64,000 bases of DNA from a virus. Its lineage: Duplodnaviria > Caudoviricetes. Positions 341-13,288 of the stretch are shown here, piece by piece. The translations under genes and the position numbers were made by a program. The notes below the pieces were generated by a model. The model did not search any database. It saw only the letters and a program-made list of their open reading frames with translations, and was not told the DNA's origin. The number at the start of each line of letters is the position of its first letter. The stretch's first letter is position 1. Location: positions 15,563-79,562 of the IMG/VR virus record IMGVR_UViG_3300028591_000168. One strand, 5' to 3'.

Positions 341-410
341 TTGTTCCTTCTGCTGTTTATGGGGGCTTAGGACCCTTTCTTCTGATATCAAAAGAAGCCG
401 CATTAAACAA
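341..410 (-). ncRNA. twister ribozyme (type P1) #1
   Basis: Minus strand UUGUUUAAUGCGGC-[hairpin]-AGGGUCCUAAGCCCC-AUAAACA-GCAGAAGGAACAA matches the twister layout of env22: UAA cleavage loop, P4 with loop UCCUAAGC, T1 pairing CCU/AGG. Confidence 0.9.
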
Positions 411-435
411 AAAAGGGGGAAAGAATCCCCCCTTA
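411..435 (-). terminator. intrinsic terminator abutting twister #1
   Basis: Minus strand AAGGGGGA-ttctt-TCCCCCTT followed by a T-tract, just downstream of the stop at 446. Confidence 0.7.
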
Positions 436-445
436 TCTTGTTTTG

Positions 446-1090
446 TTATCTTGTCCTGTAGAACAATTCCACAAGGTTGTCAGCCTCGTAGAACGTCCAA
501 GACAAGTTGTGATAGTCTATGTCTGCAATTGCTACGGTCTTGCTGCGGTTCATAAAGTGGACCTTAATGTTAAAACCGTAGCTGTTCTCGAAAGAGAAGT
601 CGGCGAGCATACCGCCGTAGCAGCACATCACGTTAACTGTGATATCACTGTTGACTTCGACGTAAGCCCACGACAAGATATTGTCAATGAGTACCCCTAT
701 GTCGTATTCGTCGCACGATACTTCGGGGTCTGTCTCGAATACCTTTGCGTACAAACCACCCTGGCGTGCACCGTGGCAAAAGAGAAAATACTCGTTGTCA
801 GCAGTAACGCCGAGCAGCCAGCCGCTGCCTTGGGGCACGCCGCCGTAGCATTGTTCTTCGTACACAACGCGTTTCAGCTGCACGTTATGAACTGCGAAGT
901 TACCGCCGTGGCGCAAGTACCACGATATGAAATCGCAGACGCTTTGTTTCTGTTCGCTATCCGATTTCCACCAAGCGTCAAGGCTGAACGCAAGGTGGTC
1001 TTTGATATCGATCGTGCACGGGTTCAGAACCGGTGTATAGGTGTTAGCCTGCTCGATAGTGCCTTCTACTTCTGTGATTTCCCATTTCAT
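446..1090 (-). CDS. hypothetical protein (214 aa)
   Basis: ORF 446..1177. Start reassigned to ATG 1090 (MKWEITEVEG) behind GGGAGG and the leader motif. Confidence 0.8.
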   Translation of the reverse strand: MKWEITEVEGTIEQANTYTPVLNPCTIDIKDHLAFSLDAWWKSDSEQKQSVCDFISWYLRHGGNFAVHNVQLKRVVYEEQCYGGVPQGSGWLLGVTADNEYFLFCHGARQGGLYAKVFETDPEVSCDEYDIGVLIDNILSWAYVEVNSDITVNVMCCYGGMLADFSFENSYGFNIKVHFMNRSKTVAIADIDYHNLSWTFYEADNLVELFYRTR

Positions 1091-1123
1091 AGTAAAAACC
1101 TCCCAAAATAATAAAGTGTTAGT

Positions 1124-1143
1124 AACGGCATCTATGTAAACAC
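1124..1143 (-). promoter_or_regulatory. conserved leader motif, copy 2
   Basis: GTGTTTACATAGATGCCGTT upstream of the gene starting at 1090. Confidence 0.65.
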
Positions 1144-1181
1144 ACCATAACAGCACCAACGGCTTTGGCGGTGTCATAGTG

Positions 1182-1210
1182 TTGACAAAGAAAAAACCCT
1201 ATGATATCAT
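1182..1210 (+). promoter_or_regulatory. sigma70/sigmaA-type promoter pointing antisense to the minus-strand genes
   Basis: TTGACA-17 bp-TATCAT; nearly the same sequence as the promoter at 4620. Confidence 0.55.
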
Positions 1211-1251
1211 AAAGATACTATTCTTAATAGCATTCCTCATAAAAAGATAGG

Positions 1252-1279
1252 GGAGCAGTTTAACGTCATGCTCAGGACG
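1252..1279 (-). ncRNA. repeated H-type pseudoknot-like motif CGTCCTGAGCATGACGTTAAACTGCTCC, copy 1
   Basis: Five copies (1252, 1845, 2511, 3194, 5434). Stems are CGTC/GACG and GAGCA/TGCTC. Confidence 0.6.
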
Positions 1280-1298
1280 GATATCAACATTTTGTGGG

Positions 1299-11610: not shown

Positions 11611-11874
11611 GATAATCAACCTCCTTTGGTTGCACACTCTGTCTGATATCTTCAGCTCAGAGTCGAGACCCATGACGTGGTCTCTTTACAGGTTTACCCA
11701 CCCTTGATTATAGTGAGATGATCCTCACTCGAGATTATATTGCCTGTACAACGCTGTCAGAAAAAGCTAACGTTGAAGGCGAGTCTCGGTTGCCCATTCA
11801 AACCTGTTAGAAAGCATGGGATATATGTTAACGTAAACTCATATATCGGATATAAGCTTACGGTTGATCAGTAT

Positions 11875-11951
11875 TCTTCCCTTCCACTGTTTATAGGGGC
11901 TTAGGACCCTTTCCTTTGATCTTTTGATATCAAAGGAAGCCGTGTTAGAAG
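11875..11951 (-). ncRNA. twister ribozyme #6
   Basis: CUUCUAACACGGC-UUCCUUUGAU..AUCAAAGGAA-AGGGUCCUAAGCCCCU-AUAAACA-GUGGAAGGGAAG. Confidence 0.9.
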
Positions 11952-12025
11952 ATAAGTCTTGACACAAAAGATAAAGAGATATCTTTTATTGTTGTTACAG
12001 TCAACAGAAGATATCTCTTTTTGTT

Positions 12026-12085
12026 TTCTTCCTCTCTGTGTTAGGGGCTTGAGACCCGCTGTCTTACGACAGGCCACATTAGAAG
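12026..12085 (-). ncRNA. twister ribozyme #7
   Basis: CUUCUAAUGUGGC-CUGUC..GACAG-CGGGUCUCAAGCCCCU-AAC-ACAGAGAGGAAG. P2 is UGU/ACA and T1 is CUC/GAG. Confidence 0.88.
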
Positions 12086-12143
12086 CGCCCCTGAAAAGGG
12101 GCGAGAAGCTGCGCGCACCCCTGAAGAGGGGCATTTACTGTAA

Positions 12144-13004
12144 CTATTCTGTTATAAAGACGTTGACTCCCTTGGGAATCTCGTCTTTTACCAGATAATA
12201 CATTGCAGGGGTCATCCAAACCCCCAATACGGCAGGATTTTCCTGCCATACTTCTGCGCAATTATCGATATCTACATGTGAGTAGATATCGATAATTGAC
12301 CGCTTGTATTTTTTCTTGTCACATTCTCGGCCGCCATCAGGCATCTTCCACGAGAAGACGTCTTCTGTAGCGGCGAATTTGACGTTACCACGAAGCAACA
12401 CGCCAATGTTGCCCATGGGTTTGCCGCTGGTGCACAGCACCATTTTATGCGTTTCCATTTTGGCGTACAGAGCCAATGCCCTGGCCAAAAGTCCCGAATA
12501 AAACTTACGCCGCAACTTTTTCGTCATAATGGCTACTCGTTGAGGCGAAGCCTCACCACCAAAAGACTCCATTGTCTTCTTTACGTCTTCCTCATTCGGA
12601 GGAAAAGACATAAAGTCAACAGCGTGATAAAACGCTACGCTGTCGAGCATGGTGACGGGCACCTGCGCTTCTTCTGCTTGTGTTATCACAGGCACAAGAG
12701 CGCGGCAGGGCAGTACCGTGAGAGCGCGGCAGGGCACCACGACAAGAGCACGGGTCTGTACCGGCACCAACGCGCGGCACTCGGCCGGTACGAGAGTGCG
12801 GCAGGGCAGCACCGTAATGGCACGGCAGGGCAGCACCGTGAGAGCGCGGGGTTGTGCCTGCACGAGAGCGCAGCAAACAGTGGTTGCCGAGCTGTTGATG
12901 TCGTCGACGTTAACGCTGGTGTTGCTGCTAGTGGTGTTGTCGCTTGCAACGAGTGCTGCGACGAGCATGAGAACAACAATGATAACGATAATGATAATAG
13001 TCAT
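12144..13004 (-). CDS. membrane-anchored protein with 8-aa tandem repeats and a divergent HGLxAF-family C-terminal domain
   Basis: AAGGAGG RBS; N-terminal hydrophobic helix MTIIIIVIIVVLMLVAALVA. Seven RAL(T/V)xxP(C)-type repeats. GNIGV...EDVFS...CAEVW aligns with the gene at 4528. Confidence 0.8.
   Translation of the reverse strand: MTIIIIVIIVVLMLVAALVASDNTTSSNTSVNVDDINSSATTVCCALVQAQPRALTVLPCRAITVLPCRTLVPAECRALVPVQTRALVVVPCRALTVLPCRALVPVITQAEEAQVPVTMLDSVAFYHAVDFMSFPPNEEDVKKTMESFGGEASPQRVAIMTKKLRRKFYSGLLARALALYAKMETHKMVLCTSGKPMGNIGVLLRGNVKFAATEDVFSWKMPDGGRECDKKKYKRSIIDIYSHVDIDNCAEVWQENPAVLGVWMTPAMYYLVKDEIPKGVNVFITE
12681..12849 (-). repeat. seven imperfect 24-bp coding tandem repeats
   Basis: RALTVLPC RAITVLPC RTLVPAEC RALVPVQT RALVVVPC RALTVLPC RALVPVIT. 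Confidence 0.85.
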
Positions 13005-13150
13005 GATTATTACCTCCTTAGGGTAACCCGTGCATGCCTTGTTGCAAGTCACGGTCGGAAGACATGACGACTTCCTGGATCTTCTGGCTTAGTTTATAGT
13101 GAGGTGCGACTCACTCGGTTACAGCAACCAGTTCCCACTCGATCCTAAAA

Positions 13151-13169
13151 CATGGGTTTATGTAAACAC
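13151..13169 (-). promoter_or_regulatory. leader motif variant, copy 5
   Basis: GTGTTTACATAAACCCATG downstream of twister #8. Confidence 0.5.
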
Positions 13170-13219
13170 GGCAAGAACGAAGCGTATAGCTATGTTGTTG
13201 CAAGCCGTAGTTGAACAGT

Positions 13220-13288
13220 GCTAGCCATCTGCGTTTACGGAGGCTTTGGACTCCTAGCTTTGATATCAAAGCTAGCCGCATTACGAGC
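13220..13288 (-). ncRNA. twister ribozyme #8
   Basis: GCUCGUAAUGCGGC-UAGCUUUGAUAUCAAAGCUA-GGAGUCCAAAGCCUCC-GUAAAC-GCAGAUGGCUAGC. T1 is CCA/UGG; P1 is weaker. Confidence 0.8.

Follow-up and report, generated by a model that had tools for sequence, protein, structure and literature searches.

We analysed a 64,000-nt stretch of phage DNA (the window; positions 15,563 to 79,562 of the IMG/VR virus record IMGVR_UViG_3300028591_000168, Duplodnaviria; Caudoviricetes), whose leftmost 13 kb form a leftward, non-structural gene arm punctuated by eight copies of the twister self-cleaving ribozyme motif. Window positions are used throughout, and the copies are numbered T1 (13287) to T8 (409) in gene direction; the two pseudoknots of the twister fold, which bear the names T1 and T2 as well, are always called pseudoknots. 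The arm carries four large genes (A, B, C and J) that follow a twister, genes D to I, and five small open reading frames (ORFs; s1 to s5; Table 1). From 13.5 kb onwards, a plus-strand arm encodes the portal, tail sheath and major head proteins. A protein identical to that of gene C is also encoded on a metagenome contig of 354,821 nt, which together with the structural genes indicates that the phage is an uncultured jumbo myovirus of about 355 kb, and that the IMG/VR record is a fragment of it.

Table 1. Features of the leftward arm, and twister copies of the related contig L114. Bit scores and E values refer to the Rfam model RF03160; "cut" is the predicted cleavage step; RBS, ribosome-binding site.
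Feature	Position	Strand	Properties
Twister T1	13221-13287	-	53.5 bits, E 8.5e-10; cut 13283 (U)/13282 (A); pseudoknot T1 CCA/UGG; heads 216-nt leader of gene A
Twister T2	12028-12085	-	45.8 bits, E 1.4e-7; cut 12081/12080; preceded by hairpin 12086-12103; followed by hairpin 11973-12020 and then twister T3, without an ORF
Twister T3	11876-11951	-	48.1 bits, E 2.9e-8; cut 11947/11946; heads 265-nt leader of gene B
Twister T4	8822-8892	-	49.8 bits, E 9.7e-9; cut 8888/8887; gene B terminator supplies its U-tract as the 5' strand (UUUU) of P1; heads s1
Twister T5	8166-8230	-	50.3 bits, E 6.8e-9; cut 8226/8225; heads s2
Twister T6	7687-7745	-	41.4 bits, E 2.4e-6; cut 7741/7740; weakest copy, P1 of 2 pairs only, one mismatch in P3; heads s3
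Twister T7	7319-7379	-	53.5 bits, E 8.5e-10; cut 7375/7374; heads 95-nt leader of gene C
Twister T8	342-409	-	48.2 bits, E 2.8e-8; cut 405/404; directly after terminator 412-434; heads 79-nt leader of gene J
Gene A	12144-13004	-	286 aa; N-terminal hydrophobic segment, Cys/Pro/Arg repeats; no Pfam or PHROG match
Gene B	8899-11610	-	903 aa; C-terminal Zeta-toxin/AAA_33 P-loop kinase domain
Gene C	5466-7223	-	585 aa; paralogous to the central portion of gene B (31% over 239 aa, E 1e-30)
Gene J	1-262	-	start of a gene of ~457 aa that continues left of the window
s1	8573-8689	-	38 aa, GGAGG RBS; 37/38 identical in L114
s2	7982-8089	-	35 aa; a gene call on the 354.8-kb contig as well
s3	7490-7615	-	41 aa; 37/41 identical in L114, identical in L117
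s4, s5	5144-5254, 4754-4864	-	paralogous 36-aa ORFs in a 390-nt tandem duplication; conserved in L114; without twister; face promoter 4620
Promoter TTGACA-17-TATAAT	7387-7415	+	perfect; antisense; -35 box 8 nt from twister T7
Promoter TTGACA-17-TATAAT	7753-7781	+	perfect; antisense; abuts twister T6
Promoter TTGACA-17-TATAAT	8238-8266	+	perfect; antisense; abuts twister T5
Promoter TTGACA-17-TATAAT	4620-4648	+	perfect; antisense; faces s4/s5
Intrinsic terminator, gene B	8894-8911	-	fused to twister T4; stem covaries (C-G to U-A) in L114
Intrinsic terminator	412-434	-	fused to twister T8
14-bp hairpin	7380-7412	-	ends 5 nt before T7 cut; z -8.1; same DNA is the antisense promoter spacer
~14-bp hairpin	7746-7778	-	ends 5 nt before T6 cut; z -6.2; same DNA is the antisense promoter
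Long hairpin after T4	8741-8810	both	-29 kcal/mol on both strands; U-tract on the plus strand
Long hairpin after T5	8107-8163	both	looks like a bidirectional terminator
Long hairpin after T6	7640-7682	both	U-rich tract on the plus strand
Long hairpin after T2	11973-12020	both	repeat family D13; 93% identical to the hairpin after T5
R1	L114		before the gene A homologue
R2	L114		with the s3 homologue; counterpart of T6, fully paired
R3	L114		before the gene B homologue; near-identical to T2
R4	L114		straight after the gene B terminator, as T4
R5	L114		before the gene C homologue; orthologue of T7

Identification and fold of the twisters

The Rfam model of the type-P1 twister (RF03160) has a gathering cut-off of 67.2 bits, and at gathering thresholds the window yields only group I and group II introns and no twister. 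When positions 1-14500 were searched permissively, by E-value threshold, the model gave exactly eight matches, all on the minus strand, with 41.4-53.5 bits (E 2.4e-6 to 8.5e-10); the best match of any other Rfam family in this region has an E value of 0.028. All eight lie outside credible RBS-led ORFs and are thus intergenic, on the coding strand and within 13 kb. A preliminary description of this DNA, made from the letters alone, had predicted eight intergenic coding-strand twisters and had named a search with the Rfam twister models as a check. The prediction is borne out by the matches (E 1e-6 to 1e-10, though below the cut-off) and by the ORF map, and large genes (about 457, 585, 903 and 286 aa) do have leaders headed by the twisters at 342, 7319, 11876 and 13221, as it had stated. 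The Rfam search found no further twister or other small ribozyme in 14000-64000, and no twister was found in the 15.5 kb left of the window or elsewhere in the whole 79,562-nt record.

The low scores (41-53 bits, in contrast to the curated cut-off of 67.2 bits) are typical of phage copies, since only 1 of 37 matches in 50 other viral records passed the cut-off. The covariance model cannot score pseudoknot T1, which covaries here and in other viral twister copies too. The most twisters of this subtype in any of the 50 other records is three, which makes the eight copies described here a large array.

To these matches we applied an alignment of the eight copies in which P1, P2, P3, P4 and pseudoknots T1 and T2 are written out, with 500 shuffles and with structures slid by 1-3 columns as controls. 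In this alignment 96.4% of the cells pair and 15 of the 21 pairs show two-sided changes. None of the 500 shuffles reaches these values for pairing and covariation, and the slid structures pair in only 38-54% of the cells. With five copies of the related contig L114 included (13 copies), 97.1% of the cells are paired and two-sided changes occur in 16 of 21 pairs. Pairing amounts to 91-94% of the cells in P1, 100% in P2 and 90-92% in P4, with compensatory changes in each stem. Pseudoknot T1 is paired in every copy (100%), and CG, UA, AU and GC are all seen at one of its positions, while pseudoknot T2 is an invariant GC/GC pair, which is consistent with the fold and shows no covariation. The pairings that the preliminary description listed for pseudoknot T1 (CCA/UGG, CCG/CGG, CCU/AGG, CCC/GGG and CUC/GAG) and for P2 (UGC/GCA, CAC/GUG and UGU/ACA) are exact.

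The positions U5, A6, A7, G11, G12, C13, G-U-C, A-A-G-C-C, A-A-C and G-A..G are invariant in all 13 copies, and these columns match the capital letters of the Rfam consensus, which are loop nucleotides and the U/A step. Hallmarks of the twister class are some ten nucleotides of loops L1 and L4 that are strongly conserved, and a U/A scissile step beside P1 (PMC5408937). The copies resemble the type-P1 twister (RF03160; Roth et al. 2014, reviewed in PMC5408937) in possessing P1, P2, P4, an optional P3, pseudoknots T1 and T2, the conserved loops, the U/A step and ends in P1. The junction between P4 and P2 is 3 nt shorter in T2, T4 and T6, a short form also seen repeatedly in viral contigs unrelated to this one. 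Because P1 is dispensable in twisters (PMC5408937), the weak P1 of T6 need not abolish activity.

Two relatives of the phage, L114 and L117, were found through the protein database; megablast of the arm against GenBank phages gave no match, gene C has no relative in IMG/VR, and the portal relatives in IMG/VR are contigs of only 4-6 kb. L114 is a contig of 344,407 nt with a 62%-identical gene C, and its arm keeps the gene order apart from rearrangements (73-92% DNA identity) and has five twisters in syntenic places (R1 to R5). Twister T7 and R5 differ at four positions, which constitute two compensatory pairs (P4, A-U to G-C; pseudoknot T1, G-C to A-U), although the surrounding block is only 73% identical. 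In L117, the third phage variant, T4 and T7 are unchanged, and its copy S4 has the T4-type terminator fusion. The T6-type copy of L117 (S6; 2871-2929 of that contig) carries G12A at the otherwise invariant pseudoknot T2 position and a mismatch in P4, and the adjoining antisense promoter is still perfect; this lineage may be decaying in L117.

That all copies are decaying repeats without present function is most improbable. The weakened P1 and P3 of T6, the loss of G12 in its L117 counterpart and the different copy numbers of the relatives could be read in this way, but compensatory change is found throughout, including the pseudoknot, the differences between T7 and R5 are compensatory only, and the placement on one strand and between genes is strict. 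The motifs are almost certainly genuine twisters under selection, as judged from their sequences. The paralogues covary and the orthologues in the relative differ by compensatory pairs only, which upholds the earlier view that the fold has been selected and that the copies are not the product of recent duplication.

Hairpins, leaders and the proposed punctuation

A stable hairpin ends 0-6 nt before the predicted cut in five of the eight copies (T2, T4, T6, T7 and T8) and in all five copies of L114, that is, in 10 of 13. Downstream, 71-265 nt separate the cut from an RBS-led start codon. At T4 and T8 the U-tract of an intrinsic terminator doubles as the 5' strand of P1. This fusion leaves no room for a promoter between terminator and twister, so these two ribozymes would be made only by terminator read-through.

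We propose that the eight type-P1 twisters on the coding strand of the leftward non-structural arm probably act as punctuation or insulators of read-through transcripts. What the sequences show is the twister motif, with its covariation, placement and conservation in relatives; from these we infer cleavage in vivo and an effect of cleavage on expression. Polymerase would read through the arm, and each ribozyme would fold and cut at the U/A step next to P1. The upstream RNA would be left with a stable hairpin followed by 4-6 nt and a 2',3'-cyclic phosphate end. For T4 and T8 this hairpin is the intrinsic terminator, for T2 it is a GC hairpin, and for T6 and T7 it is formed by the promoter palindrome. 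Cleavage would in this manner turn terminator read-through into nearly the same hairpin-capped 3' end as termination. The downstream RNA would begin with the compact ribozyme, bearing a 5'-OH, and continue with the leader and the next ORF, and each downstream unit would gain a 5' end independent of the upstream sequence. Each unit would be either a large gene (A, B, C or J) or a cassette for a small peptide, seemingly controlled by its own antisense RNA.

Arrays of this kind have precedents. For hammerhead arrays that flank prophage genes, the processing of long transcripts into units of gene length was proposed in 2011, and the arrays cleave in vitro (PMC3088659, Perreault et al.); the clustering of bacterial ribozymes has been reviewed (PMC6765202). 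The present locus shares with the hammerhead arrays of prophages and phages a cluster of self-cleaving ribozymes in coding-strand orientation, interspersed with genes whose function is unknown or of the anti-defence type. In contrast to them, it consists of twisters only; two of these are joined to intrinsic terminators, and three adjoin perfect antisense promoters and small-peptide ORFs. Both the occurrence of ribozyme arrays in phage operons and the processing idea are thus already published, and no new class is added by this locus. What merits further study is the fusion with terminators, along with the association between twisters, perfect antisense promoters and small peptides. The order of ribozyme, hairpin and RBS is also found in RiboJ, a synthetic insulator in which the sTRSV ribozyme and a 23-nt hairpin precede the RBS (PMC6206723). 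Cleavage strips the upstream transcript and standardizes the 5' end, which the predicted cleavage would do here. Unlike RiboJ, the array is natural and of another ribozyme class, the whole ribozyme would stay on the mRNA, and strong hairpins follow the ribozyme only at T2 to T6, where they are also terminator-like on the opposite strand.

The product of the glmS ribozyme is degraded by RNase J1 in Bacillus. By analogy, cleavage in the arm could turn genes down, the 5'-OH fragment being fed to a 5'-end-dependent exonuclease, which would limit read-through expression and afford no protection. The same placement data fit such a function, as does the action of T4 and T8 on terminator read-through only. 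We regard it as unlikely, because RiboJ-type cleavage raises expression in E. coli (PMC6206723), and the 5' end of the twister 3' fragment is reportedly buried in the fold, according to a passage of PMC8782182 that cites this.

Several observations weigh against the punctuation or insulation role. All eight copies miss the gathering threshold of RF03160, and no convincing coding-strand promoter was found for the arm. Coding-strand terminators (8894-8911, 412-434 and a third strong one at 5388-5416) and the antisense promoters interrupt the arm, which argues against a simple one-polycistron view. The preliminary description had envisaged a self-cleaving processing system that cuts an early polycistron into units. 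The anatomy fits the processing part (coding strand, intergenic position, hairpin before the cut, start codon 71-265 nt after it), but the coding-strand terminators and the four antisense promoters count against an uninterrupted polycistron, and early expression of the arm is conjectural. Twister T2 heads no ORF, and s4, s5 and genes D to I do without twisters, which indicates that some units can dispense with a ribozyme. On the coding strand, too, the hairpins that follow T2, T4 and T5 are terminator-like, and with host polymerase they would end transcription ahead of the small ORFs. Among other viral type-P1 copies, an upstream hairpin is only modestly enriched (7/20 vs 16% of control sites). 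In twisters, stem P0 lies 5' of P1. The upstream hairpin may correspond to P0, which is an optional stem in the published consensus (PMC5408937). The raw count of 20/33 (vs 16% of controls) had seemed to make a preceding hairpin the rule for phage twisters, but this was rejected, since the low-scoring matches are circularly permuted twisters whose hairpin is P1 itself; removing them leaves the 7/20.

The leader at 13060-13172 (minus strand), between twister T1 and gene A, looks nearly identical in L114 over the ~110 nt compared by eye; beside it, T1 differs from its L114 counterpart at many positions, and the whole matching block is 76% identical. This leader, which matches no Rfam family, may be a conserved structured 5' untranslated region. 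The motif GTGTTTACATAAAGCCGTT occurs on the minus strand at 13151-13169, 7262-7280 and 4559-4577, with looser copies near 8722-8745 and 298-318. It is located about 31-39 nt ahead of the start codons of genes C, D and J and of s1, and 147 nt ahead of gene A, and it is conserved in L114. It may serve as a phage-specific promoter or as an mRNA operator; in the former case, the 5' ends of some mRNAs would lie downstream of the twisters. We also considered CTCACTATAA, present in two leaders, as a T7-like promoter, and discarded this reading because its four matches at no more than one mismatch were equalled in 33 of 100 shuffles.

Small-peptide units and antisense promoters

The small ORFs headed by T4, T5 and T6 (s1 to s3) are RBS-led and are called as genes on independent assemblies; their peptides match no Pfam family. 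The 79.5-kb record contains only four perfect TTGACA-17-TATAAT promoters (0.04 expected), and all four are antisense and within this arm. Three of them begin 8 nt from the 5' end of a twister (T5, T6 and T7). Their hexamers are perfect in all three phage variants (this phage, L114 and L117), and their spacers have diverged. The long hairpins after T4, T5 and T6 are stable on both strands, and on the plus strand U-rich tracts follow them, so that the antisense RNAs would span each small-ORF unit and end just short of the ribozyme. The RNA from each antisense promoter would begin with a conserved 5' hairpin, and the stem of this hairpin covaries between the variants (UGUCA/UGACA vs UGCUA/UAGCA). 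The number and position of the cassettes vary: s1, s2 and s3 are present here, s1 and s3 in L117, and s3 after gene A plus s1 after gene B in L114.

These features suggest, tentatively, that T4, T5 and T6, with T2 as a remnant, could be parts of a mobile, duplicating cassette that resembles a type I toxin-antitoxin module, in the order twister, bidirectional hairpin, small ORF for a putative membrane-active peptide, and strong antisense promoter. The ribozyme would set the 5' end of the peptide mRNA and uncouple the neighbours, the antisense RNA would silence, and the copies at large genes would be secondary recruitments. Such a cassette would account for the confinement of the perfect sigma-70 promoters to the antisense strand of the arm, three of them next to a twister, for hexamers that stay perfect while spacers diverge, for antisense RNAs that would cover the peptide mRNA except the ribozyme, and for conserved peptides in units that change in number and position between variants. 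However, the peptides match no family and their hydrophobic stretches are short, s4/s5 have a similar antisense promoter (4620-4648) but no twister, four of the eight twisters head large genes, and the literature searched shows no link between type I toxin-antitoxin systems and natural self-cleaving ribozymes. The likeness to type I toxin-antitoxin loci lies in a small RBS-led ORF for a hydrophobic/cationic peptide that is faced by a strong, constitutive-looking promoter on the opposite strand. The units differ from such loci in that the antisense RNA would cover the whole mRNA, that a 5' ribozyme is not described for such systems in the literature searched, and that the peptides are putative toxins.

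A bolder version, which we consider doubtful, is that twister, bidirectional hairpin, 35-41 aa ORF and perfect antisense promoter make up an undescribed mobile module of the type I toxin-antitoxin kind, in which the mRNA 5' end is ribozyme-made, or, in a variant, that the twister-bounded units are circularized. If it were true, any read-through transcript could serve to express the module, which would be shielded from neighbouring units and kept silent by an antisense RNA of its own.

Circularization as such, in which segments with 5'-OH and 2',3'-cyclic phosphate ends would be joined by an RtcB-type ligase or by the reverse ribozyme reaction, is very unlikely. The P1 strands CUUC/GAAG are common to T2, T3 and T5, and the 5' strand of T6 is also CUUC, so that a unit could, with its 3' end, pair to the 3' strand of the ribozyme at its own 5' end. 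The authors of PMC3088659 considered circular or spliced products possible for ribozyme arrays, but detected none. An RtcB gene was not found in the 79.5 kb of this incomplete record, and the P1 strands are of low complexity, for which chance matches are expected.

The role of the thousands of twisters and hammerheads in bacteria and phages has been described as largely unknown (PMC6765202, PMC5408937). As a natural test system the locus is compact and combines four contexts within 13 kb, namely terminator-fused twisters, twisters with long conserved leaders, twisters ahead of putatively antisense-controlled small-peptide genes and one orphan, and two sequence variants of the same phage group already reveal which features stay constant.

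Genes of the arm and minor features

The proteins of the minus-strand arm have almost no family matches in Pfam and PHROG. In gene A, 24-nt tandem repeats at 12691-12875 (minus strand) encode a Cys/Pro/Arg-rich repeat (for example, ALTVLPCR) after the hydrophobic segment. For the kinase domain of gene B, a search of PDB sequences returned nothing useful and the match to a polynucleotide-kinase PHROG is weak (E 0.007); we claim no tie to the 5'-OH ends. A YonO-like RNA polymerase downstream has no support in searches of Pfam, PHROGs and PDB sequences. Between 1299 and 4071 (minus strand), four tandem paralogous genes encode proteins of 169-280 aa with an HExxH-like motif (HEFWH, HEYCH, HEAVH) and a conserved E-I/L-x-A-R. 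They have no Pfam match and are seemingly absent from L114, where only their intergenic repeats match. This repeat, with the core CATGACGTTAAACTGCTCC on the coding strand, occurs five times between the paralogous genes (1233-1284, 1825-1876, 2492-2543, 3175-3226 and 5424-5452); in L114 it is found at about 13205-13250, at 13900-13946 and just upstream of R2.

The hexamer GATATC occurs 195 times in the window, compared with ~10 expected, and some of its copies are located in the P3 loops of T1, T3 and T8 and in promoter spacers. The structural arm contains group I/II introns at 26182-26440, 34483-36717, 47885-48114 and 49259-49491 (plus strand). Further down the minus-strand arm, L001 3730-7359 (minus strand) encodes a 1209-aa protein with DUF1848 and Macro domains.

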